Assembly: GCA_964016885.1 (NCBI GenBank)
Contig: OZ024751.1
Span: forward strand, 28,954,001 to 29,018,000
Length of the DNA: 64,000 bases
Direction of reading: 5' to 3'
Source of the DNA: Eledone cirrhosa
Lineage: Eukaryota
Within the stretch, counting starts at the first letter, position 1; every line of letters starts with the position of its first letter. Both the position numbers and the translations under genes were made by a program. Positions 7,241-63,018 of the stretch are shown here, piece by piece. The notes under the pieces are model-generated. The model made no database searches. It was not told the origin of the DNA and saw nothing but the letters and a program-made list of their open reading frames with translations.

Positions 7241-7353
7241 ATAACAGAGGAGTTGTGGTAGGGAACCAGATGGACCATAACGCCACAGAGTACTCAATAC
7301 TTAGGGTAGTAGAGTGGGTAATAGGAGAAAGTATGAGTCATACTTTCTCCTAT
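7241..7353 (-). mobile_element. Family B short element, shortest copy, with terminal 16-bp fold-back, in (TA)n
   Basis: Homologous to 53751-53845 and to the reverse complement of 32285-32383; ends ATAGGAGAAAGTATGA-G-TCATACTTTCTCCTAT. Confidence 0.85.
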
Positions 7354-7425: not shown

Positions 7426-7580
7426 ATCATCATCACCATTTTACGTCCGTTCTTCCACGCTAGCATGGGTTAGATGGGTTGTCCTGTTGTGGGCAGTGTC
7501 TGGTCGGCTGACCATGCCTTGCTCATACAGGAACTGATTTGGTTTGATTTCTACAGCTGGATGCCCTTCCTAACACCAAC
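7426..7580 (-). mobile_element. RTE LINE 3'UTR/tail fragment
   Basis: Near-identical to 55275-55440, which is contiguous with an RTE ORF end. Confidence 0.85.
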
Positions 7581-15900: not shown

Positions 15901-16152
15901 AAGCAGTAATAAGACTTAATTGCAAATTGAACTCAGAATTTTAATATACAGAACTAATAAATGCAGCAAATTAACCATGGCTTACTAAACACACACACAC
16001 ACACTAGTTCAACAATCTCTTTAATTCCGTTACCATAACAACTAATGATGTCTCAAGATTCTGATAAAAATCTTTATTAATTATCAGAAAATAACATTGG
16101 GAAGAGAAAAAATACATATATGTCTGTGTAAGTGTATGTGTATATATCTATA

Positions 16153-16196
<44 letters not shown>

Positions 16197-16262
16197 ATAT
16201 GTGTGTGTATACACACACATCCTCAAACTTATATGTATTTTTTCCTCTTCCCAATGTTTCTG

Positions 16263-17340: not shown

Positions 17341-17479
17341 TATGTAGTTGGCAACCAGGAGAAAAGAGTACTCAATACCAAAGTAGAGTTTAAATATTCA
17401 ATTTATTAAGGCTAAATAGTGAGTCTTGTTACTCTGGAGTTTCGCCTGTGAGAAGCAGGTGAAATTCCAGATTAACAAG
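17341..17479 (-). mobile_element. Family C short element: 3'-half hammerhead with fold-back at stem II
   Basis: Minus strand reads CCTG-CTTCTCA-CAGGC GAAA CTCCAGAG TA ACAAG...GTATTGAGTACTC; inverted arms at 17425-17448 and 17456-17479. Confidence 0.6.
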
Positions 17480-18096
17480 GCATAATTTATGAGGATTTTG
17501 GCAACAAAAGGATTAAAATATTTATATTTGACCTAAAAACCTTCCATCATAATTTTATGTAAGAACTTTTATTGAGTTATGTTCCAAACAACCTGAATCA
17601 CCTCTTGGTTCAATGATACAAAACTGTTTATTTCAAAATATTTATGTTTAACATAAAACCTTCCATCATAATTTTATGTAAGAACCTTTAAGTTATGTTC
17701 CAAACACCAGTTTAATAAATTGATATTACTAAATCCTTCCAAATGTTTTACCATTTTCAAAATTATATGAAAACCATAGGCAATGTCCTTCATTGGAAAT
17801 TAATTAAGAAAAGGGTTACCCATAAATATTCTGAAGAATTGTGTTCTCTCCTGTTGTTAATTATGGTGAAATTCCTGAATTTATCATAGAAATTGTCCAT
17901 AATATAACAATGGAACTGAAATAGATTCTTAACCCTTTTTTTGCCAGATCACCTGAAACCACCCTTGGCTTTACAATCCAAAGCTTATTCATTTTAAAAT
18001 GTTTATATTTATCTAAAAGTCTTCCAGCTGGTACCTGGGAAATACAGGGTTTGATTCCTTGTAGAAGCCGAAGACAACTTCTTTTCCCATCTTTAA

Positions 18097-18307: not shown

Positions 18308-18733
18308 CTAAGAGACTTCCCCCTATTTTATAAGCATCTCTCTTGCATGAGCTCACCACTCTTTATGTTATCTTCTATTATAATCTTATATAATAACCAT
18401 TAAAACATTATCTTCCAAACACCTACACGCTAATGAGAAAGTTAGTTATATTATTAATACCTTTCAAATTCTTGATTACTTTCAAATCTAATTGCAGATC
18501 ACAAGTACTATCTTCCATTAGATATATGCGACTGAAAGGATTAGAGAGAGATTGGGAATTATCAGTTTAGACTAGTAAGGCCATGTTCAGCTAAGTACTC
18601 AATACCTGGGAAAATAAAGTTCATGTATACTGATGGCTGAGCTCACACTCAGGCACTAACTTTTCACTATATGTGTGTGTTTATATATATATATGTAGGC
18701 CAAGTCTTGCTAGCATGTAAAATGATGCTGATG

Positions 18734-28147: not shown

Positions 28148-28334
28148 TGGCTTCTGATTAAGGCAAAAGGCCATCAATTTTGGGGGAAGGGAAAGTCAAT
28201 TAACTCGACGCCAGTGTATTACTGGTACTTTATTTTATCGATCCCGGAAGGATGAAAGGCAAAGTTAAAGACTGTAAAGGGCCCTAACTCTATGCTGCAA
28301 AGCTTGGCATCCGACCCTCCTGATATTGCCAATC
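28148..28334 (-). mobile_element. SINE family S1
   Basis: Same central block and tRNA-like head as the 43328 copy. Confidence 0.85.
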
Positions 28335-29632: not shown

Positions 29633-29815
29633 TGTACTTTTGGTACAAGGCCAGCAATTACTCAGTACATTACTGGTACTTTATTTTTTCGACCCCGTAA
29701 GGATGAAAGGCAAAGTTAACCTCGGTGGGATTTGAACTCAGAATGGCAAGGGCCGAAACTCTATGCGTCAAAGCATGGCGTCCGACCCTCTACCGATACT
29801 GCGAATCCACCACCA
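29633..29815 (-). mobile_element. SINE family S1
   Basis: Near-identical to 43328-43518. Confidence 0.9.
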
Positions 29816-32198: not shown

Positions 32199-32383
32199 AT
32201 AGGAAAAAGTATGACCCCAACGGCAGAGCTCAAGCTGTTTCGACGTCCAGAGATAGTCGTCGAAACAGTTTGAGCTCTGCCGTCGGGGTCATACTTTTTC
32301 CTATTTCTCACTCTACTACTCTAAGTATTGAGTACTCTGGTGCGTTATGGTCCATCTGGTTCCTTACCACAATTCCTTTGTTA
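32199..32383 (+). mobile_element. Family B short element: 47-bp fold-back plus 3'-half hammerhead, in (TA)n
   Basis: Arms 32199-32245 and 32258-32304 (2 mismatches); reads GACG-loop-CGTC GAAA CAGT...GCCG TC GGGGTC. Confidence 0.85.
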
Positions 32384-32574: not shown

Positions 32575-33188
<614 letters not shown>

Positions 33189-36225: not shown

Positions 36226-36258
36226 TATATATATTTACTTATTAAAATAACAGATTAA

Positions 36259-36309
36259 AGTTTAAGCAAAGAATCGCTGCTTTCACCCTTAACGGGATCT
36301 TCTGAAACT
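36259..36309 (-). ncRNA. Decayed type-I hammerhead-like motif (CAGAAGA core)
   Basis: AGTTT CAGAAGA TCCC-GTTAA-GGGT GAAA GCAG..TTGC TT AAACT; stems I-III pair but U4 is replaced by A. Confidence 0.4.
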
Positions 36310-36481
36310 AAAAAAAATCAATCTGTGAACGCAAAAGTAAATATTTTGAAAAATGTTGCTACCGAAGGAAAACAGGAAGAGGATACTTTGGTTCATGAAA
36401 ACGTTCCCTGACAATGAACAGAAAAAAGCAAAGATTATACGTCGTTATGCGGAGTGATGAGAACAATTACACGCAAAGATA

Positions 36482-37215
36482 AAAACAGGTAGGGAGAAAT
36501 ACGTATGCAGTAGATGTACAGGGAAATTAGACAGAAGTCGTATTGATAGACACATTTTTCAAATGCAGGCGGGTGCTATAGAAGTGGTGGATAGCTTCCG
36601 GTACCTAGGAAATCAGATTAGCATGGGAGGGGGAGGGGTGTTCCGAGGCCATAGTATCTAGAATAAGGACGGGTTGGAAGAAGTTTAGGGGGCTGCTTCC
36701 TCTGCTGACGAAGAAGGGTTTCTCCCTGCGTATGAAAGGCCGGTTATATGATGCCTGTGTGAGGAGTGCGATGCTGCATGGTAGTGAGACATGGGCAGCA
36801 ACTGCAGAGGATATGCAACGGTTGGAGAGGAATGAGGCAAGCATACTCCGTTGGATGTGCAATGTCAATGTGCGTGAACGACACAGCATGGATGTGTTAA
36901 GAGAGAAACTGTGTTTGAGAGGGATAGAATGTACTGTGTGAGAGAGGAGACTGAGGTGGTATGGACATGTGATGCGCATGGAGGATGACCGATGGGTGAA
37001 GAAGTGCCAGGAAATGCCAGTTGAAGGAAGACGTGGTAGAGGTAAACCACGAAAAACATGGGCGGAGGTGGTGAGAACAGACCTCAGATCGCTGAAGCTC
37101 ACGGTGGAGATGACGAAGGACCGTGACAAGTGGAGAGATGCTGTGCTGAATAAGACCCGTCCCACCATTGCAAGCAGGGAAAAGCGGACGTAAAATGATC
37201 ATGATGATGATGATG
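36482..37215 (+). mobile_element. RTE-clade LINE, 5'-truncated (RT C-terminus, pseudogenised)
   Basis: YVCSRC..EVVDSFRYLG..RIRTGWKKFRGLLPLL..KGRLYDACVRSAMLHGSETW..RRLRWYGHVMRM..GRRGRGKPRKTW; frameshift near 36630, stop at 36939-41; (ATG)n tail. Confidence 0.95.
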
Positions 37216-42189: not shown

Positions 42190-42340
42190 AGTGGTGAATT
42201 GGCAGAGTCGTTAGAACGTCAGATATAATGATTTGTTCTGGATTTCTGCTTTCTCAGTTCAAATCCTGCCATGGTCAATTTTGTTTTTCCTCCATTTGAG
42301 GTCGATCAAAAAGTACCAGTCTAATACTGGGGTTGATTCT
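42190..42340 (+). mobile_element. SINE family S1 (diverged)
   Basis: TGGCAGAGTCG A-box, GTTCAAATCC B-box, GGTCGATCAAAAAGTACCAG. Confidence 0.7.
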
Positions 42341-43327
42341 TCTTCTATATATCTACATCTCTTTCTCACTTCCTTTATCTTACTCTCTATCCTTCCTCCA
42401 AAGAAATCTGCTGTATTCAGACCTGGAGAAGAGATGGGTTCTGCCAGGTTTATAAAATACCCTAGAAACTCTGTATGTCAATATGTCACCCCTATATGTC
42501 TACATCAGGATTTACAGAACCACACCATACCACACCCCACCAATGCAGTTTATAGTGACAAATAAATGAATTTAACTGATCAAATGGAAATTATCTGCCT
42601 TACATGTTTCTTTGATCTTCAACACTCCCAGAAGAAGTTGTTGTCTCTTAATTACTCCGATCACCCCAGTTGATCAAAGTGTTTCGACTCCTTATATTAT
42701 ATATGTAAGTATCTACCGTAATATTATAACTAGCTGTGAAATATCGTAGTTGATATTCTGATTATATAATAGTGTGTCTGCAGTGATGATGACAATGATG
42801 GTGATGTTTAGATGATGATGATGATGATGATAATGATGTTGATGATAAAGATGATGACAATGATGTTACGAGGAAGATGATAATGACACTGTTGATAACG
42901 ATAACATTAATGATGACAACAATGGGAATGTGATGGTGATGACGATAATAATGATGTTGTCGTGATGTTGATGATAATGATGACAACACTGTTGATGATG
43001 ACTACAATGATGACAATGACCACAATAATATGATGATGACGACGATGGATGCGATGATGACAATGATGGTGATGGTAATTATAATGTCGATGGTAATGAT
43101 GATGATGATGGTAATGATGATGATGATGATGATACTGTTGATAATAATGACAATATTGATGTGATGGTGATGACAATAACGATGTCATGGTGTTGATGAT
43201 AATGATGACAACACCGTTGACAATGACAATGATAATGTCATGATGATGATGATGATGACACTGTTGATAACACTGACGACAATAATGGTGATGACAATGA
43301 CACTTGATAACAGTGGTGACAATAATA

Positions 43328-43518
43328 ATTGTTTCTACTATAGGCACAAGGCCAGCAATTACCCCCAGTACATTACTGGTACTTTATTTTATCGACCCCG
43401 TAAGGATGAAAGGCAAAGTTAACCTCGGCGGGATTTGAACTCAGAATGGCAAGGGCCGTAACTCTATGCATCAAAGCATGGCGTCTGGCCCTCTACCGAT
43501 ACTGCCAATCCACCGCCC
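43328..43518 (-). mobile_element. SINE family S1, near full length
   Basis: Minus strand reads GGGCGGTGGATTGGCAGTATCGGTAGAG...GAGTTCAAATCCCGCCGAGGTTAACTTTGCCTTTCATCC... Confidence 0.9.
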
Positions 43519-44012
43519 TTTGACAATGACACTTGATGATAACTGGTGACAATAATAATGACATGATGATGATGACACCAACATTGATGATCATCATCAT
43601 TGTGGCATTGAAAATGATGACAATACTGACATGGTCAAGATTGTCCTTTTATGCTTTATTTTTTGTATATTTCTTCTTTACTGTAAGAAAGCCCACCCCC
43701 TCTTCTTACCTTCTCTTTGTCTTTAATCTCTCTCTCTCTCTCTCTCTGTATGTCTTTGTCTGTCTTTCTATCCCCCTGTCTCACTTTCTGTCTTTCTTTC
43801 TATCTCTATGTCTGTCCATGTCTTTCTAGTTCATTCTCTGTCTTTCTCTATCTCTCTATATTTTTTTCACCATCTATCTATCTCACTCATTCTGTCTTTT
43901 TTGTCACTATCTATCTATCTGTATGTCTGTATTTCTGTCTGTCACTATCTATCTGTCTGTCTGTCTGTCTATCTATCTGTCTGTCTGTGTGTCTGTCTGT
44001 CAGTCTATCTAT

Positions 44013-45055: not shown

Positions 45056-45086
<31 letters not shown>

Positions 45087-45089
<3 letters not shown>

Positions 45090-45268
45090 GTATTTCCGTG
45101 GGAAGGGTAAAGGAAAGGGGAGTGCTCTATGTATGCTACAGAGCTATTTAATTATGCAATAAACAACATAAGACAATTATTCCATTTACCAAAGGTTTCA
45201 TGAAGACAGGCGAGCTCAGCAGAGACGTCTGAAATCGTTCATCAGAATGAAAATTTAATATGGACGTA
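45087..45268 (-). mobile_element. Family A hammerhead-bearing short element in (TA)n
   Basis: Reverse complement of 45087-45199 aligns with 52513-52627; flanked by TA runs. Confidence 0.8.
45180..45252 (-). ncRNA. Type-I hammerhead ribozyme (GUA site, cut between 45187/45186)
   Basis: TTTCATT CTGATGA ACGA..TCAT GAAA CC-TTT-GG TA AATGGAA; core intact, stem I 7 bp, stem II with one mismatch near its base. Confidence 0.75.
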
Positions 45269-45509
45269 TAAATATATATATATTTTATTTGAATGAAATA
45301 GTTTTGGGAAGATGAACTATAAATGATGATGATGATATGTGTGTGTTTGTGTGTATTTAATGCATGTGTGAATGTGTCAAGTTTGTTTATATATATAAAC
45401 ACATGCTAATGTGGAAGATCTAACTATAACCATTGGTCTACTCATTGTAGAGGGAGCAACAAGTAATACAGCTTATTGTGCTTAGCTCGTAAATCCTTCA
45501 GGAAAAAGA

Positions 45510-46025
45510 CATTTATATATTATATATGTGTGTATCTGACTGATATCATTTATATATTATATATGTGTGTATCTGACTGATATCATTTATATATTATATA
45601 TGTGTGTATCTGACTGATATCATTTATATATTATATATGTGTGTATCTGACTGATATCATTTATATATTATATATGTGTGTATCTGACTGATATCATTTA
45701 TATATTATATATGTGTGTATCTGACTGATAACATTTATATATTATATATGTGTGTATCTGACTGATAACATTTATATATTATATATGTGTGTATCTGACT
45801 GATAACATTTATATATTATATATGTGTGTATCTGACTGATATCATTTATATATTATATATGTGTGTATCTGACTGATAACATTTATATATTATATATGTG
45901 TGTATCTGACTGATAACATTTATATATTATATATGTGTGTATCTGACTGATAACATTTATATATTATATATGTGTGTATCTGACTGATATCATTTATATA
46001 TTATATATGTGTGTATCTGACTGAT
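45510..46025. repeat. 37-bp minisatellite CATTTATATATTATATATGTGTGTATCTGACTGATA(T/A), ~14 copies
   Basis: Direct inspection. Confidence 0.97.
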
Positions 46026-46044
46026 GAAATGACAAGTCAGTCAG

Positions 46045-46230
46045 TCATATTGGTGGTCTTCCCACAGCCCCAGCGGACAGAATGGAGAAGGCGTTTCCCC
46101 GGAGGACGGCAAGAGAGATGCGCTGGAAAAGACATACCAGCTCGCGCGGCTCACACCTGTGGCTATGGTGGTGAGTAGGGAGGTAGCCCTGGGGCCGAGG
46201 AAGATAGATGTTAAACAACGATGATGATAA
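46045..46230 (+). mobile_element. GC-rich RTE-related 3' fragment
   Basis: GAGATGCGCTGGAAAAGAC and AAGATAGATGTTAAACAACGATGATGAT resemble the RTE ORF end and tail. Confidence 0.45.
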
Positions 46231-46403
46231 TATATATATTTTGGTGTCTCGTGTGTATGCATATATATCATGTGTGTATAGATGTATATATGTGTGTGTA
46301 TGTATGTATATATATGTACATATGTGTGTGTGTATATATATATATATACTGTTGCCTCATGCTTATGTATATATATATTTATATGTATGTGTGTATATAT
46401 ATA

Positions 46404-46435
<32 letters not shown>

Positions 46436-46741
46436 CACTACTGTCTACTGTCTACTATTGAATTAAGTGTATAATTAATACTTCTACAATAAACTGTAAA
46501 GGTTTATCTCAGTTGAGTATATAACATCTGGTTAAATATGCTGATTGATGTGAAATTTGTCTGTAAAATGTGTAGATGTTGCCATTTATGACAAACCAAA
46601 CAACTTAGATATGTTAAAGGACAAAAAGACTCGATATAAATTATAGAGTTGAAATATTTTTTCAAGTGTGTTGATACCAACCCCTCCAAAACTGCCTCTA
46701 TTTCTATGAAGGAAAAAAGAAAAAACACACCTATTTTTTAA

Positions 46742-46962
46742 CCCTTTAGCATTTAAACCGACCAGATCTGGCCAGAACTCTCTCACCTCTTTCTGCTCAA
46801 ACCGACTGTAACTTGCTGCTCATATCTACATTGAGGTATTGTTCTCAAAATAAATAACATCAAAATCTCATAGATTCAATATTACATCAGATAATTATGT
46901 AAGATTAAGTGTTTACTATGAAAATACAATAGTAAATTTAGAATAATGTAAATGCTAAAGGG
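46742..46962 (+). mobile_element. Full-length TTAA MITE M1 (piggyBac-like termini)
   Basis: TTAA|CCCTTTAGCATTTA ... TAAATGCTAAAGGG|TTAA: perfect 14-bp TIR and TTAA TSD. Confidence 0.92.
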
Positions 46963-47139
46963 TTAAATTGAAATGTTTCAACATAATTTTAAGCAATCTT
47001 TCCTAAATTCTTTATTAATTAATTAAAAGACAAAGGATTTTATTAGAAATATGTTAATGAAAAGATATTTTCCCCTGTTAAATTAGGGGTTAGACTTGTG
47101 GATCCCATGGCAGGTTTTATAGTAATCATAGATGGTGGG

Positions 47140-47455
47140 GGGGGGTCCTTTTTGAGGTAATGTTTTACATACAGACTCTTTAGGATCCCTTTTAGGGGAT
47201 TTTTTATATATCGACTCCTTAGGGTCCTTTTTAAGTCAGTTTTACTTATTGACTTATTAGGTCCCCTTTTAAGGTATTATTTTACATATTGACTACTTAG
47301 GGTCCCTTTTAAGGTATTGTTTTACGTATCAATCCCTTAGGGTCCTTTTTAAGGTATTGTTTTACATGTCAACCCCTTAGGGTCTTTTTTAAGGTATTGT
47401 TTTACATATCAACCCCTTAGGGTCCTTTTTAAGGTATTGTTTTACATATTGACTC
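47140..47455. repeat. 40-bp tandem repeat TTAGGGTCCTTTTTAAGGTATTGTTTTACATATCAACCCC
   Basis: About 8 diverged units. Confidence 0.9.
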
Positions 47456-47589
47456 CTCCTAACCATATCATTTTCTGTGACCGCCCATGTGTATAGTACT
47501 TGGCCACATTGCTTGACAAATGTCAAAGTGACCCAGGGTACAGTGTCTCAACCATTGTCTCCCTCCTCTGACACATATTGTGATGGAGT

Positions 47590-48135
47590 GGTCAGTCGAA
47601 TGTATTGAGAGTGCTTGATTTTATTGACCACGGATGGATGAAAGACAAAGTTGACCTCAGCAAAAAATTTGAACTTGTATAATGATAATAAAAATAATAA
47701 TGATTTCTGATTTAGGCACAAGACCAACAATTTTGGAGGGAAGAGGGGAAAGTCAATAAAATCAACCCAGTGCATTACTGGTACTTAATTTTATCGACCC
47801 TGTATGGATGAAAGGCAAAGTTAACCGTGGTAGGATTTGAACACAGAATATGAAGGGATATAACTATATGCTGCAAAGCATGGTGCCTGACCCTCTACCG
47901 ATTCTGCCAACCCACCACCCCTAGTAATAAGGACAATAGCAACAACAAGAAAGCAAGATATTGTTAGATAAATAAATGTTTCTACTTTTGGTACAAGGCC
48001 AGCAATTACCCAGTGCATTACTGGTACTTTATTTTATCGACCTTGTAAGGATGAAAGGCAAAGTTAACCTCGCCGGAATTGGAACTCTATGCTGCGAAGC
48101 ATAGAGTCTGACTCTCTACCAATACTGCTAACCAG
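47590..48135 (-). mobile_element. Cluster of three S1 SINE copies
   Basis: GGATGAAAG(G/A)CAAAGTT recurs at ~47636, ~47807 and ~48049. Confidence 0.85.
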
Positions 48136-49080
48136 TGTTTTGATAGAGAGAGAGAAGATGGAATCCTGTCTGTTACTTTCTGCATAGTTTTTACCTTAAT
48201 TAGTTGTCCAAATTAAAGCAAACTATCATTACAGTTGTACAGTATTAACACACCTGTTTATTCTCGAAATATATTGCTGGGGAAAATATTATTTACTCAG
48301 GTAATATGTCACACCTTGTTAAGGGTGGTAATATTGACATACATACACACACGCACACACACGCAGACACACATATACACATACACTCACACTCTTACAG
48401 AGACACTGACACACCCACACACACTCTTGATATGTCACAAACAGCTTGTTAAAGGTGGTAACATTGAAACACATAAACACACATATATACACACATATAT
48501 ACACACAGAAACACACTGACTGAGAAACACACACACTGACACACTCATACTCTCACAGACACACATGCTCACACAATCACACACATTCACACTCTAACAC
48601 ATGCAACCACACACACACATACTCTCACACACACACTCACACTCATTCCCCACATACACACAGAGACGCACACTCTGTCTCTCTCACACACACACAATCT
48701 TCTCATGTTTATAATGTTGCTAAACAATTTTCCCCCCAAAATAGACACAAACTAAAATTTTGATATATTTTTCTATTTCAGTTGTTTGTGCAGCTTTATT
48801 TTATATTTATTTAAATATTTTTAATTTAAAAAAACATTTATCTAAATTTCTTCAATTTTTTTATTTTCATTTTGTGTGGTAGAATTTTAAGTTCTTCTTA
48901 GTTCCAGAAGGAACCTTTTCATCACCATTGCCATTATTTACAGTCCTCAGGCTAAAATGTTTGCAACACAGACGTAATCACAATAACATCACACAAACTA
49001 ACCATTTACAAATTTTCACAGAGAATCTATTTATCTGTGTTTCTATCTGAAAACCACCCTATTTCTCTCTCTCTCTCTCT

Positions 49081-49147
<67 letters not shown>

Positions 49148-49505
49148 CTTGCAAGCAGGGAAAAGCGGACGTAAAATGATGATGATGATGATATCATTTA
49201 TCAGCGTTTAACATACATTTTTTACATATATATATAAACCCACGCAAGCATGGAAGATGGACGTTAAATGATGATGATATATATATATATAATACATTAT
49301 AAAGAAAGAAGAAACATTAGATATAAATAAAAAGGTATACCATACCTAAATTCCTTCATTATCCTCGACTACGTAGTTTCCTGGGTATTATGCAAAAACA
49401 TTACATCACAGAGATGCAGTATTTTTGTGAGGTTTGCTGACTTATCAAGAGGATACCATGCATGTATATGCATGTATATGTATGTATTTGCATGTTTCTT
49501 TGTAT

Positions 49506-49538
<33 letters not shown>

Positions 49539-49539
49539 C

Positions 49540-49882
49540 GTTTATCATCATCACCGTTTAACGTACATTTTTTCCATGCTAACATGGATTACACAAATTG
49601 TCCCGTTGTGAGCCAACCCGGATAAGATGACTGTGTCTTGCACATACAGAACTCATTCTGGTTGGGTTTCTATGGCTGAATGCCCTTCCTAACACCAACC
49701 GCATTTGCATTGTGTACTGGTGGCTTTTTGTTATGACACCTACACAACCACTTCACAGTGCGGGCTGTGCACTTTGTGTTATGGGCACTTACATGATCAC
49801 TTTACAGTACTGGATATTTTTTGTCATGTTACCAATATGACCATTGTACAGTGCGGACTGAGCACTTTTTATCATGGCACCA
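49540..49882 (-). mobile_element. Diverged RTE 3'UTR/tail fragment
   Basis: TTCCATGCTAACATGG..., TGCCCTTCCTAACACCAACC. Confidence 0.75.
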
Positions 49883-49902
49883 AAGCGATATATATATACG
49901 AT

Positions 49903-50050
49903 GGAGGCACATGGCTTCGTGGTTAGAGCATTGGGCTTGCAATCGAAAGGTTGTGAGTTCAATTCTCAGACCGGGTGATGTGTTGTTTCCTTGAGCAAGA
50001 CACTTTATTTCACATTGCTCCAGTTTACTCAGCTGTAGAAATGAGATGAT
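49903..50050 (+). mobile_element. tRNA-derived SINE family S2
   Basis: A-box TGGCTTCGTGG, B-box GAGTTCAATTC, then CCTTGAGCAAGACACTTTATTTCACATTGCTCCAG. Confidence 0.85.
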
Positions 50051-50414
50051 AGGACTGGAGTCCCTATCATTCCACTGTAAAGGAAAAAAAACACCCAGCC
50101 CACACTGCAAAGTGGTCGTGGAGGTGCCACGGCAAAAAACACCCAGCACTCACTGTAAATGAGGTTGGTGTTAGGAAGGACATCCAGCTGTAGAAATCAA
50201 GCCAGAATCAGTTCCAGCCCCACCCTTGCAAGCAGGGAAAAGCGGACATGAAATGAAATGAATGAATATACATGGATGAAAAGTTCATTGGCTTACCAAG
50301 ATACTCTAATGGAATGACCAAATGAGGTTTATTTTTCAACATAGTCCCCAAAAAGAAATAATGATGTTATTAATAACAAGAGTTGAAATTAATGTATGAT
50401 TTATGTAAGATTAC

Positions 50415-50660
50415 CCAGCAAGTGATGTGTATGGATGATAGTTACTGGGTGAAGAGGTGCCATGAAATCCCAGTGGAGGAAAGCTGCAGTAACGGTAGAC
50501 CAAGGAAGACCTGGGCAGTCGTGGTGAGAACTGATCTCAGATCACTGAGATTCACAGAGGATGGCGAAGGAACATGGTGACTCGAGAGATGCTGTGCTGG
50601 AAAGGGCTTGTCCAACCCTTGTAAGTGATGAAAAATGGACGTAAAAATGATGATGATGAT
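50415..50660 (+). mobile_element. RTE LINE 3' fragment
   Basis: VMCMDDSYWVKRCHEIPVEESCSNGRPRKTWAVVVRTDLRSL; GGACGTAAAAATGATGATGAT tail. Confidence 0.9.
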
Positions 50661-51175
50661 ATATATGTAATTTATTTATGGTTGCAAAGCTACACTGGTG
50701 ACGCAATGAGCATTAGTTGCGTGTTTAATGCACTCTTTAAACTGGCCCAAACAACCAAACCTGTGAATGTGTGTGTGTATATATGCATGTGTGCATGTAT
50801 GTATGTATGTATGTGTGTGTAATTTTGTACTAGTGATGTAAGAATATCAGACACTTCCAGCGGCTAGATCAGATAATATTTCCTATGTAATAGAAATTGA
50901 TAGAGATCTGGTGTCTGGTTGGTTCAGCTGGTTGACACCTCTCACTTGCAATAGAACACACACCACAGACATATATATATATATTTGTGGGTATATGTAT
51001 ATGTGTGTATATGTATATATTTATAAATGTATATATATATATATATGTATATATTTATATATGTATATATATATGTATATATATATATATTTATAAATGT
51101 ATATCTATATATTGAGTTCCTAACTCAATATATACATTTAATATCTAGATATATATATATATTTAGGTATATATT

Positions 51176-51206
<31 letters not shown>

Positions 51207-51545
51207 ATATATATGTATATATGTATGTGTATATATATATGTATATATGTATGCGTATATATATATATATGTATATATGTATATATATGTGTATGTATAT
51301 ATATATATGTATATATATATATGTATATATATATATATGTGTATATATATATATGTGTATATTTATATATATATATATATGCATATATATATATGTATAT
51401 ATATATATACATATATATACATATATATACACACATATATATACACATATATATACATACACATATATATACATACACATATATATATACATATATATAT
51501 ACACATACATATATACATATATATATACACATACATATATATATA

Positions 51546-51579
<34 letters not shown>

Positions 51580-51623
51580 TATAAATATATACGTATATAT
51601 ATATATATATATACATATATAAA

Positions 51624-51872
51624 TCATCATCATCATCGTTTAACGTCCGTGTTCCATGCTTGCATGGGTTTGGACGGGAGTTTTCCCACTTGAGGCAAGA
51701 GTGGTTGTCTTGCTCGCATAGGACTGTCTGGCGGGTTTTCTACAGTTGGATGCCCTTCCTAACACCAACCACATTTACAGTGTGGGGCTGGGAGGTTTTT
51801 ACCGTGTTGCCTACACGGCCACATTACAGCGTGGACTGTCTGGCAGGTTTTCTACAGCTGGATGCCCTTCCT
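51624..51872 (-). mobile_element. RTE-type 3'UTR/tail fragment
   Basis: (CAT)n CGTTTAACGTCCGTGTTCCATGC... Confidence 0.85.
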
Positions 51873-51990
51873 ATACGTATATATATATATACATATATAA
51901 ATATATACGTAAATATATATATATATAGATATTAAATGTATATATTGAGTTAGGAACTCAATATATAGATATACATTTATAAATATATAC

Positions 51991-52028
<38 letters not shown>

Positions 52029-52036
52029 ATATATAC

Positions 52037-52075
<39 letters not shown>

Positions 52076-52337
52076 TAAATATATATGTATATATATATAA
52101 ATATATACGTATATATATGTAGATATTAAATGTATATATTGAGTTAGGAACTCAATATATAGATATACATTTATAAATATATATATATATATATACATAT
52201 ATATGTGTGCATGTATGTATATATATGTATACATACTACTGTACGTCTGTATACATATATGTATGTACGTATACATACTTATATTTAAGTAACAGCTGTA
52301 CTAAGAGTGAGAAATGAAATTTCGTTTCATTTTTTCC

Positions 52338-52393
<56 letters not shown>

Positions 52394-52400
<7 letters not shown>

Positions 52401-52627
52401 TGTAATAAACAACATAAGGCAATTATTTCATTTACCAGTGGTTTCTTAAAAGCAAAAAAATTTTGCTCTCAATCATCAGAATGAAAAAATCCTGGCGTAT
52501 TTATTGATGTTGGAAACCACTGGTAAATGAAATAATTGCCTTATGTTGTTTATTACATAACTATTAAGCTCTGTTACCTACATAGAGCACTCTTTTTTCC
52601 TGGACTTTTCCGACGGAATTACTTCAT
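52394..52627. mobile_element. Family A element with a perfect 52-bp inverted duplication
   Basis: 52394-52445 is the exact reverse complement of 52513-52564; body homologous to 45087-45199. Confidence 0.85.
52426..52486 (-). ncRNA. Type-I hammerhead ribozyme (GUA site, cut between 52433/52432)
   Basis: TTTCATT CTGATGA TTGAGAGCAAAA-TTT-TTTTGCTTTTAA GAAA CC-ACT-GG TA AATGAAA; core intact, 7-bp stem I, 12-bp stem II (atypical U10.1-A11.1). Confidence 0.8.
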
Positions 52628-52638
52628 TCATACATATA

Positions 52639-52670
<32 letters not shown>

Positions 52671-52679
52671 GATATATAT

Positions 52680-52739
52680 ATAGGAACGAGTAGGACCCCG
52701 ACGGCTGAGCTCAAGCCGTTTCGACGGCTAATTCTGGAC
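52680..52739 (-). mobile_element. Family B fragment (half-hammerhead arm only)
   Basis: Identical to 53830-53889. Confidence 0.85.
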
Positions 52740-53167
52740 CAGATGTACAGTAGTATGTATATATATATACATACATGCACACATATATATATGCACGTAT
52801 CGGTTTACCGAACATTTATTATAATGCTCGGTTTGTTTGTAATACAAACAAACAGCCCGAATTATGCCGTACAGTGTTTAGGCAACCACATCACCTTTTT
52901 GTTCAACACTGACACAGAAACGATGTACTAGTTTCAAGCTTATTAGCTATCGTCAGCATCGTATACCTTCCTGCTAGATGGTTGAACGACTGAAAGTATT
53001 TACTCTCCTTATGCATATTAACGGCTGAGCAGCCTAATTTGCATATCGAGTGAGTTCAGTCAGCCCAATGAATAAAAACCCCAAAGTGAAACCTCTTTTC
53101 CTTCTCCTGTGTATGTCTTTGTGGTATATTAATATTCCTGTATCTGAAGTTTGAAGCCTTTTCTTAG

Positions 53168-53573
53168 TTTAGCATTTAAACCGGCCATATCCAGCCAGAA
53201 TTCTCTCACCTCTTTCTATTCAAACCAGCTGTAACTGGCCGCTCATACTGATGTTAAGATATTTTTGTCAAAATAATATCAAAATCTCATAGATTCGATA
53301 TTATATGAGATAATTATGTAAAGTAAAGCCTTTACCATGAAAATGTAATATCAAATATAGAGGTAATATAAATGCATTTAAACTGGACATATCAGCCAGA
53401 ATTCTCTCACCTCTTTCTGTTTAAACCAGCCACTCATACTTATGTTAAGGTATTTTTCTGAAAATAAATATCAAAATCTTGTAGATTCGATATTATGGGA
53501 AATCATTACGTAAGATAAAGCCTTTACCTTGAAAATATAATAGTAAATATAGAGTAATATAAATGCTAAAGGG
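53168..53573 (+). mobile_element. Head-to-tail dimer of MITE M1
   Basis: Two M1 bodies fused at AAATGCATTT (~53370-53379); ends AAAGGG|TTAA. Confidence 0.85.
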
Positions 53574-53704
53574 TTAAAGCTGTGTGCTTAAAACACACAC
53601 ACACACACACACACATACACATACGCATTCAGTTCAGTTCCCTTTAATATATACAGATGTAATTTTTTTTATAAATCTGAAAATAGTGCGAGTGTGTGTG
53701 TGGT

Positions 53705-53735
<31 letters not shown>

Positions 53736-53750
53736 ATATATATATATATA

Positions 53751-53955
53751 TAACGAAGGAAATGTGGTAAGGAACCAGGTAGACCATAACGTACCAAAGT
53801 ACTCAATACTTAGGGTAGTAGAGTGGGTAATAGGAACGAGTAGGACCCCGACGGCTGAGCTCAAGCCGTTTCGACGGCTAATTCTGGACGTCCAGAATTA
53901 GCCGTCGAAACGGCTTGAGCTTGAGCTCAGCCGTCGGGGTCCTACTCGTTCCTAT
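53751..53955 (-). mobile_element. Family B element with a 60-bp-arm palindrome and 3'-half hammerhead
   Basis: Palindrome centre GGAC|GTCC at 53889/53890; reads GACG..CGTC GAAA CGGCT-TGAGCTC-AGCCG TC GGGGTCC; flanked by (TA)n. Confidence 0.85.
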
Positions 53956-54496
53956 ATATATATATATATATATATATACTTTTATGTGTATATACATGGA
54001 TATTTCTTCCATGTGTACATATATGAAGATATGTTTGTATGTATACTTGTAAGATTGTAAGTAAAGATATATATATATATATATTTATGTGTGTGTGTGT
54101 GTGTGTGCATGTGTAAATATATGTTAGGCAGCACTATAGAACCTGTAAAAATGCACAACTCTGTAGAATGTTTAACATTTTTCCATATATTCCATTAGAT
54201 GTTTATAACAGTTATGAATATTTATGAAAATTTCTTGCTGCTTTGGACTAAATAATCGCTACAAGAGGTTGCTATGATAAGAGACAAGCCCTTTGGCTAA
54301 TTACAATCTATATTGACAACCCCTTACTCTCTACTTCATACCCCCCACTTCTCTCTTTCTTGCTCTGTATTCCTGTGTATGTGTGTATATATACGTGTAT
54401 ATATATACGTGTATATATGTGTGTCTATATGTGTGTGTGTATATATATATATACATATGCACATATATATATATACACACATATATATATGTATAC

Positions 54497-54527
<31 letters not shown>

Positions 54528-54657
54528 CGTATATATATATATGTATATATATATATGCTTATATATATGTATATATACGTATATATATATATGTATATAT
54601 ATATATATGCATATATATATGTATATAAATATGCATATATATATGTATATATATATG

Positions 54658-54689
<32 letters not shown>

Positions 54690-54757
54690 CATATATATAT
54701 ATGTATACATATATATATATATACGTATATATGTATACATATATATATGTGTATATA

Positions 54758-54803
<46 letters not shown>

Positions 54804-55060
54804 TACTCACATATATATATATACACACATATATATATACACACATATATATATACATATATATATATAGATATATAGATACACACATATATATATACAC
54901 ACATATATATATATATATATACATATATATACATATATATATATATATATACATGTATATATATATATATCTCACTGTGTATTCCTCTCTCTATCTATCT
55001 GTCTCGGTAGTCCTGTCTACCTCTCTGTTTATCTGGATACCTCTCTCTCTGCTGCTGCTG

Positions 55061-55113
<53 letters not shown>

Positions 55114-55274
55114 GCTGCTGCTGCCACTACTACTACTACTACCACTACTACTACTAGTAATTCTTGTTTGCGTAAACTGTTCATATTTTTTCAGAACACT
55201 AAATATTGTACATGGAGGTGCAAAAAAAGCTTCCCCCAAATATACTAAAATATATACTAAAATTAAGATAAAAG

Positions 55275-55886
55275 TCATCATCATCATCATCATCACCGTT
55301 TTACGTCCGTTCTTCCACGCTAGCATGGGTTAGACGGGTTGTCCTGTTGTGGGCAGTGTCTGGTCGGCTGACCATGCCTTGCTCATACAGGAACTGATCT
55401 GGCTTGATTTCTACAGCTGGATGCCCTTCCTAACACCAACCTCATTTACAGTGGGTGCTGGGTGCTTTTTCGTGGCGCCTACATGTCCACTTTACAGTGT
55501 GGGCTGGGTGCTTTTTTGCCGTGGCACCTCCACGACCACCTTGCGGTGGGGGGGGGGGGGCATATTGTTTATATGCTTCAGCATGTACCTATGGGAGGTC
55601 GGGTACCCTGTATTACTGCGTGACGCCAGAAGTCACGGTCGTGTGTCATTGACTTTGAGAGGTGTAGTTGGGTAAGGTCGGCTTTTATCACCTCATCCCA
55701 AGTCATCTTGGGTCTCCCCACTCCGCGGTTTCCATCAACTTCTAGTGCTCTGCACCTTTTTGTGCAGCTGTCATCCTTCATACGCATCACATGTCCATAC
55801 CAGCGTAACCGCCTCTCCTGCACGCAGCATTTGATTCCTCTTATGCTCAGTCTCTCTCTCAATTCCTTTATGCTTTGTCGTTCATG
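55275..55886 (-). mobile_element. RTE LINE 3' end: ORF terminus, 3'UTR and (GAT)n tail
   Basis: RERLSIRGIKCCVQERRLRWYGHVMRMKDDSCTKRC..GNRGVGRPKMTW..DRDFWRHAV, continuous with the dispersed 3'UTR repeat. Confidence 0.93.
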
Positions 55887-55930
55887 TGTGTATATATAAA
55901 TATATGTGTGTGTACTTGTGTGAGGGAGTG

Positions 55931-55977
<47 letters not shown>

Positions 55978-56346
55978 TTCTATATATATTTCATGGTGAG
56001 ATGCTTTACTCTTGAAGAATCAATCAAACTATCCAAGCATGGAGCAATCACATGTACACATACACACACATTTATTTATGTACACACAGACACCCACCCA
56101 CACACGCATATATATATATATACACACACATACACACACATACAAGTTAGAATATTTAGAGCCAGTAAAATAAATTTTTTAAAAAGCCAGTCCCAGAAGA
56201 AGAAAGAAAATGGAGCAGAAAAAGAAAATGTTCCATATTTTGAATAAAATCAAAACATGGTGTTTAACATGAACTAAATTTGTAGGTATATATTTATTTA
56301 TAGAGTATTTACGTATCGAGAGAGAAAAAAAAAGGAAGGATAGGTG

Positions 56347-56560
56347 ATATATGTAGTTATTTGCCAAATATTGTATGCAGAAGGTGCTCAATACTAGTGC
56401 CGGCAGTATTAAATATTAGAAGTGTTAATATTTAGTGGGCGAGAGAGTTAGCAGAGTGGAAGCACGTGGAAAAGTAAGAAATCAGAGAACAGACCGTTAA
56501 TACATGTTTATTTAAATAAACATGTATTAACGGTCTGTTCTCCAATTTCTTACTTTTCCA
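56347..56560 (-). mobile_element. Family D short element ending in a 47-bp-arm loopless palindrome
   Basis: Arms 56467-56513 and 56514-56560 (2 mismatches); GTATTGAGCAC motif on the minus strand. Confidence 0.6.
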
Positions 56561-56682
56561 TGTATATGTATATATATGTGTGTGTGTGTGTGTATGTATA
56601 TGTGTGTGTGTGTATGTATATATATATGTGTGTGTGTATGTATATATATATGTATATATAGGTATATATAAGTATGTATATA

Positions 56683-56748
<66 letters not shown>

Positions 56749-56953
56749 TTTCTGTTGGTGTTTCTGTGTGTGTGTCTATGTGTTTAGTTGTTTGTGTATG
56801 TGTTTGGTTGTTTGTGTGTGTGTATGTCATTAAATACACACATGAACCAATCTTCTGACTGTGGTTGCTCAAATATTTCAAGCCATTCATGTTTTCATCT
56901 AAGTTTGTACATGTGCATACATGCATATGCATCTTTATACATACACATATATA

Positions 56954-57214
56954 TCATCATCATCATCATCATCATCACCGTTTTACGTCCCTTCTTCCAT
57001 GCTAGCATGGGTTAGACGGGTTGTCCTGTTGTGGACAGTGTCTGCTCGGCTGACCATGCCTTGCTCTTACAGGAACTGATTTTGGCTTGATTTCTACAGC
57101 TGGATGCCCTTCCTAACACCAACCTCATTTACAGTGAGTGGTGAGTGCTTTTTTGCCGTGGCGCCTACACGACCACTTTGCAGTGGGAGGGTATGGGGGC
57201 ATATTGTCTATATG

Positions 57215-57217
<3 letters not shown>
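56954..57217 (-). mobile_element. RTE LINE 3'UTR/tail fragment
   Basis: Near-identical to 55275-55577. Confidence 0.88.
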
Positions 57218-57252
<35 letters not shown>

Positions 57253-57608
57253 CATGTGTATTTTAAATATATGTATATATATATATATATAATCATGTGT
57301 GTTTTAAATGCATGTAAAATGATAATGATGTGTATGTGTACACCCCCCACTCCCACACACACATATACACACACATACACACATATATTCATGCACACAC
57401 ACACTTCTAAACATTCTGACAAAAAAATGTTCACTTGTGTGTGTATATAATATAAAATATATATATATATATATATATGCAAAAGTTCTATTTAAATTGT
57501 TGGGATACAACAAGCAAATATTTTTATAACTGATATAAAGCACTCAACAAGTATTTGGATTAAACATACGATATTAACAAATGGAAACTATATTTATAAA
57601 ACCATATT

Positions 57609-57673
57609 TATTTTATTATACATATTTCAAGGACACCACGTTAAATTATGGTGTGCTTTCATCAGACAAAATA
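57609..57673 (-). ncRNA. Type-I hammerhead ribozyme (AUA site, cut between 57617/57616)
   Basis: TATTTTGT CTGATGA AAG-C-ACACCA-loop-TGGTGT-C-CTT GAAA TATGTA TA ATAAAATA; 8-bp stem I, 9-bp stem II, minimal stem III. Confidence 0.7.
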
Positions 57674-58009
57674 CAATATAGATCAGTTTTATAAATAAAT
57701 ATTGACATACCCTTAAAAAATGCAACCATTACTGTTGGAAGCTCCCGGATAGTGGAGTCGTTTACTTATATTATTATTAGTATTGGATATTTTTATTTTT
57801 AAAATAAGTCGTTGGGTTACAGAGAAAGAAAAAGGAGAGAGAGAAAAAGACAGAAAGAAAGAAAAAAGAAAAAATTATTATTATTATTATTTTTTTTTTT
57901 GCATATGTATATATATGTATATATATATATATGTATATATATATAAACAATTAAGTTTTTATATATATGTATATATATATATATGTATATATATAAACAA
58001 TTAAGTTTT

Positions 58010-58794: not shown

Positions 58795-59530
58795 TTTTCT
58801 TCTTTGCCCACTTATTCTTGGGAAGGTCTTGGGTGCAGAATCCTGAAACACTCTTCCAGCAAGTCCTATTAACCTTTTAATGTTTACATTACTCTATATT
58901 TACTATTGTATTTTCATGGTAAAGGCCTTACCTCACATAATTATCTCACATATTATTGAATCTATGAGATTTTGATGTTATTTATTTTGAGAACAATACC
59001 TTAACATCACTATGAATTGCTGTTACACCTGGTTTGAACAGAAGGAGGTGAACAAATTCTGGCTAGATATGGCCAGTTTAAATGCTAAAGGGTTACAGCA
59101 ACCATTCCCAAGCAGGACTAGCCAAGCTCTTGGATGTTATCCAACCATCTTGCTCAGGGTCTACCCCTGTGTCTCCTGCTGGCTTGTGTGGCCCATAAAA
59201 TATATCCATCAACTCCTCTTTCCTGAGACATTCTAACAAGATGTCCATACTATTGGAACTGTGATCTCTCAATTCAGAGAAGTAGCAGCTCTACCTGGAA
59301 CAACCCTCTGATTTCCAAGCTACGCACTCCATCAACTCTTTCCTGAGAGATTCTAACCAGATGTCCGTAATATCGGACCTGTGATCTCTCAAATTGGAGA
59401 AGTAGCAGCTCTATTGGAGAAATAGCAGCTCTATTGGAGAAGTAGCAGCTCTATTTGGAATGACTCTCTGATATTCAAACTAGAAACTCTATAGAGTAAC
59501 ATTACTCCTAAGACCCTTCAGAGGTACCCA
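58795..59530 (-). mobile_element. LINE (RTE-like) 3' fragment split by MITE M1
   Basis: IERSQFQ*YGHLVRMSQER..RRHRGRP*ARWLDNIQELG; same family as 15350-15535. Confidence 0.75.
58873..59092 (-). mobile_element. TTAA MITE family M1
   Basis: TTAA|CCTTTTAATGTTTA ... TAAATGCTAAAGGG|TTAC. Confidence 0.88.
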
Positions 59531-60945: not shown

Positions 60946-61477
60946 CAGCGACCGTCTACTATCGATATAACACCAAATTACCAGGTTGTCCCTGAATCAA
61001 ATCGGTCCACTATTTTCTTTTTTTTTTCTCTTCTATGTTTGGGTTCAACATAACCCTGTTACATAATTCTGCAAATAACACCTGATGAGACCATCCTGCC
61101 TTGCATCATAATCGGATGATAGAGCTGGGCCTTCGAAATATGTATATTGCTTTCACGGAATTAAAATTCTAAAATAAATTTTCCAGTCCTGAGATTTCTG
61201 TTGTTGTTTTAACCCTTTACTCTATATTTACTGTTGTATATTTATGGTAAAGGCTTTATCTCACATAATATCTCACATAACATTTACATTACTCTATATT
61301 TGCTATTGTATATTTACGGTAGACGCTTTATTTCACATAATTATCTCTCATAATATTGAATCTGTGATATGTTGATATCATTTATTTTGAGGACAATAAC
61401 TTAACACCAGTATGAGGACACACATGACTGGCTCCAATACAGTTTCTGTCTATCAAATTTAGCTCACCCAATAAGTA

Positions 61478-62137
61478 TCAGGTTGTTCCAGAAGTGAATG
61501 GAGGTTTTTAAACATTAATTTTAAAACAACATATCTCAGACCAAAATAAACTTTATTGATTAAAATAAAAACCATTAGAATCTACACATTTTTGCCAACA
61601 AGGTACATGTTTATTTATTCCAATGACAGTCTGAAGTTCTGGCGCCAATGAAAAGCACTTTTTGTGGCTGGTTTGGTTGTTGAAGATTTTTCCTTGTAAG
61701 AAGTTGTCAAAATCCTTGTAAAAGTTAAAATTGATGGTTGGTTGGTGAAAGATCTGATGAGTATATTGGATAAGACAATGTTTCATAGCTCAGTTCACTC
61801 AACTTCTTTTGCATTGGTTGGTTGTGTGATGTGATGTGATGTGATGTGTGATTAACCCTTTACCATTTAAACCAGTCATATCCGACCAGAATTCTTTCAC
61901 CTCTTTCTGTTCAAATCGGCTGTAATCAGCCGTTCATACTGTTGTTAAGGTATTGTTCTCAAAATAAATAATATCAAAATCTCATAAATTCAATATTAAG
62001 AGAGGTAAAGCCTTTACTGTGAACATATAATAGTAAATATAGAGTAATGTAAATGCTAAAGGGTTAAGCATTGTCATGCAAGGGGTTGGGGATTGAACCT
62101 TTTCTATTGACCATTGTCAGGCACATAGGCTGCAGTA
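61478..62137 (-). pseudogene. Mariner (Hsmar1/cecropia-like) transposase 3' fragment plus TIR, interrupted by MITE M1
   Basis: VNRK...LHDNA [MITE] QKKLSELSYETLSYPIYSSDLSPT..DNFLQGKIFNNQ..GINKHVPCWQKCVDSNGFYFNQ; TA|TCAGGTTGTTCCAGAAGT terminus. Confidence 0.9.
61856..62063 (+). mobile_element. Full-length TTAA MITE M1 nested in the mariner
   Basis: TTAA|CCCTTTACCATTTA ... TAAATGCTAAAGGG|TTAA. Confidence 0.92.
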
Positions 62138-62588: not shown

Positions 62589-63018
62589 CCTCTGAATCAG
62601 TTTATTATATTCCTTTCTATTCTATTGTGAAACACACGCATTACACATATACACAGTCTCTCTCTCTCTATCTCTCCCCCCCTCTCTCTATATATATATG
62701 TATGTATATGGTAGATATGTGTGTAACTATAGTTACAGTTGGTTTGTGGTTTAAAGCACTCAATGCTGTGACAAGGTTGCATCTCGTGTAGGGTTTATAC
62801 TTACTATACTCCAAGGTTAAGACTGCTGTGACATGTAGAGTGTAAATCAAGTAAGCAGGAATGGAGTGAAGGTAGTACCATGAATGAACTTCATTGCATA
62901 TGGTAATTGTTCCAATATCGATCAGCTCAGGGCTTGATCATAATGATCGGAGGGTGTCTCTGCGCTGACATCTCATCAGATATAAGTGTTCATAAGCACA
63001 GAACACATTCAATATATA

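Follow-up and report, generated by a model that had tools for sequence, protein, structure and literature searches.

The window analysed here, a 64,000-nucleotide stretch of the Eledone cirrhosa genome, contains a series of short islands that carry hammerhead ribozyme folds, or pieces of them, and border (TA)n. We read these islands, with a probability of about 0.7, as 3′ ends, truncated on the 5′ side (pseudo-LTR pieces), of Penelope-like retrotransposons (PLEs) belonging to at least six families, most likely of the Hydra clade. This clade is indicated by the form of the ribozyme, the (TA)n target and a motif found in the tail. These are new families of a known kind, and the single copies in the window are most likely inert debris.

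Hammerhead folds of the minus strand

CUGAUGA boxes were confirmed at 45245, 52479 and 57665, all on the minus strand. A strict descriptor of the type-I hammerhead gave two matches in the window, 52424-52488 and 57608-57674. None was obtained in 300 shuffles by 200-nt blocks or in 300 shuffles by 1-kb blocks, and a single match appeared in 2 of 300 whole-window shuffles. When extra bases were tolerated beside stem II, a third match was found, 52918-52964, and three matches were reached in 0 of 200 shuffles. CUGANGA, GAAA, NUH and stems I to III are all present at 52426, 57609 and 52918; the last of these hammerheads was missing from the original prediction, which had listed three complete ones. 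Two of the three, 52426 and 57609, stand as predicted. The other, 45180-45252, has an intact core, stem I and stem III, but the base of its stem II is mismatched and none of five descriptor settings recovered it. The hammerhead fold is the minimum-energy fold at 52426, and lies 1.6 kcal/mol above the minimum at 57609 and 2.7 kcal/mol above it at 45180. Altogether, four complete or near-complete folds lie within 13 kb, every one on the minus strand. As to the decayed ribozymes claimed earlier, 36259 was recovered by one relaxed setting, but 61082 and 62897 by none of four. The half-ribozymes at 17425, 32242, 52680 and 53830 do exist as pieces running from GAAA onward, and all except 52680 turned out to be arms of inverted repeats.

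Could such folds arise by chance in AT-rich repetitive DNA? Folding z-scores are modest (−0.17 to −2.24), and Rfam returned no hammerhead, either in two targeted scans or in the 150 rows listed out of 330 for the whole window. Nevertheless, the expected excess over shuffled sequence was found, the observed counts being reached by 0 of 200 block shuffles in any of four descriptor settings, and variation among copies of one family avoids the ribozyme core (see below). A chance origin is thus extremely improbable and already largely refuted: the hammerhead folds are real. The miRNA matches in Rfam coincide with inverted repeats or with TA/TG repeats; no listed one attains its gathering score.

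Anatomy and copies of the insertions

The features recognised are the following.

7243..7353: hairpin insertion of family B with a tail of 78 nt; apex lying a few nt 3′ of where the cut site would be; ribozyme gone
17344..17480: decayed hairpin insertion of family D; the long arm (minus) extends from loop II to the tail motif 17367-17388 and includes a Hydra-type stem III; inverted arm of about 26 nt
18585..18660, minus: probable old remnant; tail motif box 18593-18605; 8 nt matching family B
32199..32382: hairpin insertion of family B; the long arm is 32245-32382 (plus) and has a tail of 78 nt; inverted short arm; apex in putative stem II
36256..36312, minus: decayed hammerhead-like fold with one core change; found by one relaxed descriptor setting
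45085..45272, minus: family A copy, single arm, read as a 5′-truncated end; ends in (TA)n; tail hairpin 45120-45144; hammerhead 45180-45252, with an imperfect stem II and a cut predicted at 45187/45186
52394..52514, minus: short inverted arm of family A, tail-less and ending in (TA)n; its hammerhead, 52426-52486, is complete, with a cut predicted at 52433/52432
52513..52627, plus: long arm of family A; its first letter is the G of GAAA; hairpin 52568-52592 within a tail of 63 nt
52680..52739, minus: family B solo short arm; 60/60 identical to 53830-53889
52793..53135, minus: element H; complete minimal hammerhead 52918-52964 with a palindromic, loopless stem III, predicted cut 52926/52925; 5′ boundary approximate
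53752..53955: family B hairpin insertion; long arm 53889-53752 (minus) with 78-nt tail; inverted short arm 53890-53955 (plus); apex within putative stem II
56353..56563: family E hairpin insertion; arms 51/53 identical; 111-nt tail, motif box 56383-56394; possible palindromic stem III adjoining the apex
57479..57800, minus: family C single arm; complete hammerhead 57609-57673, predicted cut 57617/57616; motif box 57538-57547; 5′ boundary approximate
61070..61160, plus: possible decayed hammerhead; 12 nt of GAAA/stem III in common with 57609; found by no descriptor
62720..62990, minus: possible decayed element; CUGAUGA 62979, motif box 62754-62763; found by no descriptor

Six insertions are head-to-head hairpins. 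In five of them, the long arm has a tail of 63 to 111 nt, the inverted arm has none, and both end in (TA)n; each family has two fixed 3′ ends, and the tail measures 78 nt in all three tailed copies of family B. In family A, the two arms are identical over 52/52 positions and overlap by 2 nt at the junction. Four of the six apexes lie at GAAA or stem II, the other two near a putative stem III or cut site. Truncation at the 5′ side, an adjacent inverted copy and an optional tail, the hallmark of PLEs, are thus all found, with apexes that vary in other copies. An inverted 5′-truncated copy, a tail, junction palindromes and close opposite-strand hammerheads have all been described for PLEs (PMC8557442; PMC3846280; PMC4209133). 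The inverted-arm-plus-tail anatomy that marks PLE insertions had been overlooked at first. Several elements of the original prediction are supported, namely the co-occurrence of several families with type-I hammerheads, the targeting of TA microsatellites and a Penelope-type machinery. Adjacency to (TA)n is confirmed too, although 38% of the window is no more than 150 nt from a run of this kind.

The reverse transcriptase (RT)/GIY-YIG partner had been said to be absent from the window, and our searches agree. Pfam gave no relevant match in 150 ORFs, picked by complexity from 683 of at least 45 aa, and 13 short protein motifs yielded only scattered, chance-looking matches across the window, with no RT or GIY-YIG remnant. 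The assignment to a clade therefore rests on non-coding features; in the protein, the Hydra clade is recognised by RWK and DKT, by the lack of CCHH and by RT phylogeny.

The copies at 45087 and 52394 share 81-87% identity and are two members of one family, A, although the hammerheads at 45180 and 52426 had been counted as belonging to dissimilar families. Family A is matched by 2757 contigs in X1, 41 in X4 and 7 in X6, and by 4510 raw reads in X9, covering three organisms. The variants listed number 40 of 67; 12 of them affect the ribozyme, and all spare its invariant core and stem III, so that the core is conserved across copies as far as these variants go. The free position 7 varies, three changes preserve or better the pairing of stems I and II, and one stem II change, at 52472, has no clear compensation. 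For family A, the one family covered, the stems too are kept across copies as far as these variants go. At 52468, the window copy differs from almost all reads. No RNA dataset appeared among the sequencing runs listed, which carries no information about expression.

Tail ends of family A continue into (AT)n in 41 contigs and 491 reads. On the other side, the sequence continues upstream of 52514 in 19 contigs of X1, one of X4 and one of X6, with a visible stretch of 30 letters, and upstream of 52507 in 406 reads, by a median of 64 letters. Since other copies run on upstream, the window copies are 5′-truncated ends. The joints listed (15 of 17: 10 skips and 5 strand changes) fit head-to-head insertions with other apexes. 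Pile-ups of X9 read ends at 52421 and 52534 were considered as ribozyme cuts and rejected; both positions coincide with AATT or adjoin it, and restriction for a RAD library is the most likely source of these ends.

Some or all families might instead be non-autonomous: retrozyme-like derivatives, or Hydra elements with internal deletions, that retained the hammerhead and the tail hairpin and depend on mobilisation in trans. Every copy is short, coding sequence was not seen in the window, and retrozymes have been proposed as non-autonomous PLE derivatives (10.64898/2026.07.22.740005). Moreover, the last letters of the 30-nt upstream end of family A resemble the tail end (5/5 in X4 and X6, 4/5 in X1), which would close a unit of about 210 nt. 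Such a circle is nevertheless disfavoured: its joint should be seen in the 406 reads at 52507, and no tail-to-head joint was found among the 15 of 17 listed. Tandem hammerhead units are absent from 44.5-58.5 kb, and strong 5′ truncation by itself gives such short copies. We consider this alternative unlikely, although some families may be non-autonomous, for instance in longer forms, and the short non-autonomous or retrozyme-type units of the original prediction are not supported.

For family B, hammerhead identity is something we infer, because no CUGANGA half was found in any window copy (32242, 52680, 53830), and because stem III is fully paired in only one of the two source sequences, with 2/6 mismatches in the other. 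Pattern scans of metagenome contigs, viral contigs and prokaryote genomes gave no matches and no further copies of this family.

The four folds on one strand within 13 kb might also suggest a ribozyme cluster adopted by the host to process a local transcript. However, family A is high-copy and dispersed, window copies have private or decay changes (52468; broken stem II at 45180), and minimal PLE hammerheads were inactive as monomers in vitro (PMC4209133). The clustering itself, part of the initial claim, is weak: 7 of the 10 insertions listed lie in 45-58 kb (P about 0.02 if independent), but four of them are within 1.6 kb, where search effort was greatest. Adoption by the host is accordingly very improbable, and ends of PLEs remain our preferred reading.

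A hairpin at the start of the tail

The tail starts with a bulged hairpin containing a GAGYACT box, of pattern RCUCU / inner stem / AU bulge / WGAGY-ACU. This hairpin is common to coral and sea-cucumber Hydra elements and covaries across families; in the consensi of PMC8557442 that were compared, hairpin and box occur at the 5′ end of Hydra-1_Ajap and at the 3′ ends of Hydra-2_Ajap and Hydra-2_Amil. The part of that article used here does not mention it, and its presence at the ends of several otherwise unrelated families is possibly a new detail. In the window, Hydra-type tail patterns matched only in family A (2) and families B and D (4), against 0 of 100 shuffles. Families C and H fit the hairpin poorly, and family A is alone in receiving good support from single-sequence folding (z −3.6 and −2.7; −1.5 to +1.4 for the other seven). 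Proximity of the motif to (TA)n (13/22 sites versus a background of 14.5%) and its count (7 versus 0.46) are both inflated statistics, as they include the sites from which the motif was derived. Two of five strings tested against the supplement of PMC8557442 gave 3 matches, all in Hydra consensi; since no Penelope/Poseidon, Neptune or Nematis DNA consensi were noticed there, the motif is perhaps not Hydra-specific.

By analogy with the PLE literature, an RT/GIY-YIG protein would cut (TA)n DNA, and reverse transcription would be primed at two places within the RNA: immediately ahead of the tail hairpin for the short arm, and 63-111 nt further on for the long arm. Synthesis would usually end early, and the two cDNAs would join head-to-head via microhomology or fold-back. 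Because the template spans the cut site, the RNA would have to be uncleaved or re-ligated. The hammerhead would be kept functional in source elements, where cleavage is predicted; with a tiny or palindromic stem III, cutting is probably weak and occurs as a dimer. We tentatively propose, the odds being somewhat against it, that the tail hairpin is a clade-wide cis signal (coral, sea cucumber, this genome) on which the Hydra RT-endonuclease docks and which determines its two priming sites, and that the hammerhead fold may also stall RT and act as template for the fold-back. Stalling at the hammerhead is only partly supported, as family A apexes elsewhere spread over 52417-52507, most of the detectable range.

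Known Penelope-like elements and significance

Hydra elements are nearly all in (TA)n (Craig et al. 2021, PMC8557442), with 3′ hammerheads of the same form as ours, and one such element is already published from Octopus bimaculoides, Hydra-1_Obim. By eye against File S2, Hydra-1_Obim, Hydra-1_Ajap, Hydra-2_Ajap and Hydra-2_Amil have, like the window families, a (TA)n target and a 3′-terminal type-I hammerhead with extra bases beside stem II, a 3-4-bp stem III and a tiny loop. The stem of stem III in Hydra-1_Obim is that of family A, and family D resembles the Ajap and Amil forms. Hydra-1_Obim differs from the window families in stems I and II and termini, and its stem III string had no window match better than 2 mismatches. 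Judged by sequence against this source, the window families are distinct from it in ribozyme and termini.

The minimal hammerheads of metazoan PLEs (Cervera and de la Pena 2014, PMC4209133) are likewise dispersed single motifs of many families per genome, with close opposite-strand pairs and palindromic stem III, and were attributed to truncated PLEs; families A and C differ in having U-A or A-U, not G10.1-C11.1, at the base of stem II, which is long in A. Two RT start sites account for the tail in Poseidon PAc of Anolis (Frangieh et al. 2024, PMC11167929), as proposed here. Inverted pLTRs and junction palindromes, as in the window insertions, are known from Adineta vaga Penelope (Arkhipova et al. 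2013, PMC3846280), and both elements share an AT-rich target with ours. The tails differ: published ones are 30-40 bp long, against 63, 78 and 111 nt here, and that of PAc is inside the ORF, whereas the longer tail here matches the start of the 5′ UTR in the Hydra-1_Ajap consensus compared. Animal non-LTR retrozymes are likewise non-coding, AT-rich, PLE-related and provided with type-I hammerheads (PMC7229834; Li et al. 2026 preprint). They are, however, tandem hammerhead units of about 300 bp (Cervera and de la Pena 2020, PMC7229834) and are characterised by expression as small circular RNA, whereas the window has single or inverted truncated arms, and no tandem units with at least two complete hammerheads.

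The useful parts of these observations are practical and mechanistic. Many animal genomes contain thousands of hammerhead motifs in PLE ends, and finding them here is expected biology. On the practical side, at least six families in 64 kb were missed by Rfam, among the rows listed. On the mechanistic side, the recurrent short hairpin insertions preserve a trace of each of the two priming sites and of how the cDNAs were joined, and the tail hairpin is a concrete candidate for the RNA signal recognised by PLE proteins. If this proposal is true, the PLE hammerhead would have a structural role besides cleavage, and any RNA with both modules would be mobilisable.

Hammerhead folds and their families

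The window is AT-rich, animal-type DNA dense in microsatellites, with repeats that look like those of an octopus genome. Three complete hammerheads had been predicted in it (45180, 52426 and 57609); all three proved to lie on the minus strand. A strict hammerhead descriptor run on the whole window recovered two of them, at 52424-52488 and 57608-57674; three control sets of 300 shuffles each gave 0, 0 and 2 single matches. The copy at 45180 failed in every descriptor setting, because the base of its stem II is mismatched. When unpaired bases beside stem II were permitted, 3, 3, 4 and 3 matches were obtained in four settings, counts equalled by none of 200 block shuffles. A complete minimal hammerhead at 52918-52964 was gained with this relaxed descriptor, and a further match (36256-36312) once one core change was permitted. 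The latter is one of three copies that had been described as decayed; the other two, at 61082 and 62897, matched in no setting. Rfam, proposed as a check, gave no hammerhead among the matches listed (150 of 330 for the window). The initial observation is largely real.

Insertions in the window by family
45087 and 52394, family A
7243, 32199, 52680 and 53752, family B, four insertions
57479, family C, one copy
17344, family D, one copy
56353, family E, one copy
52793, element H, one copy

The insertions at 45087 and 52394 had been taken for dissimilar families, but belong to the same one, with 92 of 113 aligned long-arm positions identical. Compared pairs within family B are 83-100% identical. 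The families found here are new; the kind of element is already known.

A solo B arm (within 52680-52759) is identical over 60 of 60 positions to the B arm at 53830-53889, 1.1 kb apart and with the same 5′ point; the remaining B copies show about 13-17% difference. After the solo arm comes a stretch of nearby flank (52230-52250), about 20 nt long and inverted. The two arms look like the product of a single complex event or of a local duplication, and the arrangement resembles a pair of direct pLTRs plus an inverted one enclosing captured DNA. Upstream of the element H hammerhead lies a short hairpin (53019-53040), with an 8-nt string common to family B and 18642.

Anatomy of the hairpin insertions

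Six insertions in the window are head-to-head inverted repeats. Five of them (family A, E and three B copies) have one arm that reaches a far 3′ end and an inverted arm that halts at a nearer one, and both ends adjoin TA-type repeats. The extra 3′ piece of the long arm, or tail, is 63 nt long in A and 111 nt in E, and each of the three B copies has one of 78 nt; in D, decay is too advanced for its measurement. In the A insertion the two arms do not differ at any of 52 nt and so stem from a single young event. Junctions between arms show short overlaps or palindromes. The apex, where the two arms turn, lies at GAAA or stem II in 4 of the 6 insertions. There are hints that reverse transcriptase (RT) may stall on the ribozyme at these points, a suggestion kept tentative because the family A apexes in other copies are widely spread.

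At 56301, a weak match to the GAGYACT box of the tails faces the E long arm over a short TA run, and may be due to chance. Additional inverted repeats of short unique sequence were seen at 32575-33188, 16093-16258 and 7692-8164, two of them flanking TA runs. The window also contains a MITE-like repeat of ~230 bp with terminal inverted repeats, sometimes in tandem (46737-46967, 53168-53578, 58869-59095, 61217-61416, 61852-62067), a dispersed family which we take to be SINE-like (2646-3159, 28141-28334, 29663-29814, 42251-42338, 43321-43519, 47611-48131), and an abundant dispersed repeat starting in (CAT)n runs (7426-7582, 12648-12805, 55275-55520, 56957-57185 and others). Two open frames (36605-37198, 55578-55979), with no Pfam match and one homologue, presumably look like the C-termini of RTE-type LINE proteins. 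Minisatellite arrays at 8526-12137, 45510-46025 and 47143-47457 (units of about 38, 37 and 40 bp) hold no hammerhead core.

Family A in sequencing runs

The family A stretch was present in sequencing runs of three organisms; a fourth accounts for a small share. Four of 11 runs were examined (2757, 41 and 7 contigs, plus 4510 raw RAD reads, depth not being equal to copy number). In all four the family extends upstream, and the window copies are therefore truncated; the tail terminates in (AT)n. Among the variants listed (40 of 67), 12 fall in the ribozyme and none in its invariant core or stem III. Two are at the free position 7, one yields a G.U pair in stem I, two improve stem II, six lie in or beside loop II, and one is at the stem II base, without clear compensation. 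Of the joints listed (15 of 17), 10 are skips and 5 are strand changes, which is what other hairpin insertions with differing apexes would be expected to give; in none of them does the tail connect with the upstream side.

Tail module and likeness to Hydra elements

The tail of A, B and D opens with a hairpin, followed by the GAGYACT box. Patterns common to the tail and to published consensi of Hydra, a clade of Penelope-like elements (PLEs), matched only A (2) and B plus D (4), and 0 of 100 shuffles. With one mismatch allowed, the box occurs at 6 places versus 0.36 expected. In an alignment of 10 window sequences, a 7-pair tail structure was 84% paired, with both-side changes in 4 of 7 pairs and a covariation score equalled by 0 of 500 shuffles, the structure being derived from the very sequences, several of them related, on which it was scored. 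At one of the pairs most sequences (7 of 10) are unpaired, and single-sequence folding gives good support to the hairpin in family A only.

Hammerheads at the 3′ end and insertion into (TA)n belong to the definition of the Hydra clade, which includes Hydra-1_Obim from Octopus bimaculoides (Craig et al. 2021, PMC8557442); stem III forms in the table of that paper agree by eye with those of A, D and H. Among PLE features the same authors count truncation at the 5′ end, an inverted copy next to the element and a tail of 30-40 bp. Palindromes at inverted junctions were reported, and interpreted as self-priming (Arkhipova et al. 2013, PMC3846280). A tail bracketed by two internal RT start sites, and in vitro insertion without need of cleavage, were also reported (Frangieh et al. 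2024, PMC11167929). Most likely, by analogy with the enzymology of other PLEs, a Hydra-type RT-endonuclease would cut (TA)n DNA, reverse transcription would be primed at two RNA sites, and synthesis would stop early, the two cDNAs then being joined head to head. No RT or GIY-YIG remnant was found within the 64-kb window, as had been stated.

Minimal hammerheads occur by thousands per genome, with opposite-strand pairs, and their activity is low and dimer-dependent (Cervera and de la Pena 2014, PMC4209133). Retrozymes are defined as tandem units (Cervera and de la Pena 2020, PMC7229834; Li et al. 2026, 10.64898/2026.07.22.740005), a reading that the sequences disfavour here. The original interpretation was half right.

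Penelope families in octopus are described in PMC13282606 and PMC8967140, whose main texts do not mention ribozymes. The words hairpin and stem-loop are absent from the main text of Craig et al. 2021 (PMC8557442), and the tail module was not found described in the literature searched (Repbase, Dfam and most subscription papers being outside its scope). The hairpin and GAGYACT module of the A, B and D tails recurs in Hydra consensi: Hydra-2_Amil and Hydra-2_Ajap have it at the 3′ end, Hydra-1_Ajap at the 5′ end, where it lies upstream of the ORF. The comparison suggests that the tail is where the 5′ UTR of the next unit begins. The lead to pursue is the tail hairpin.
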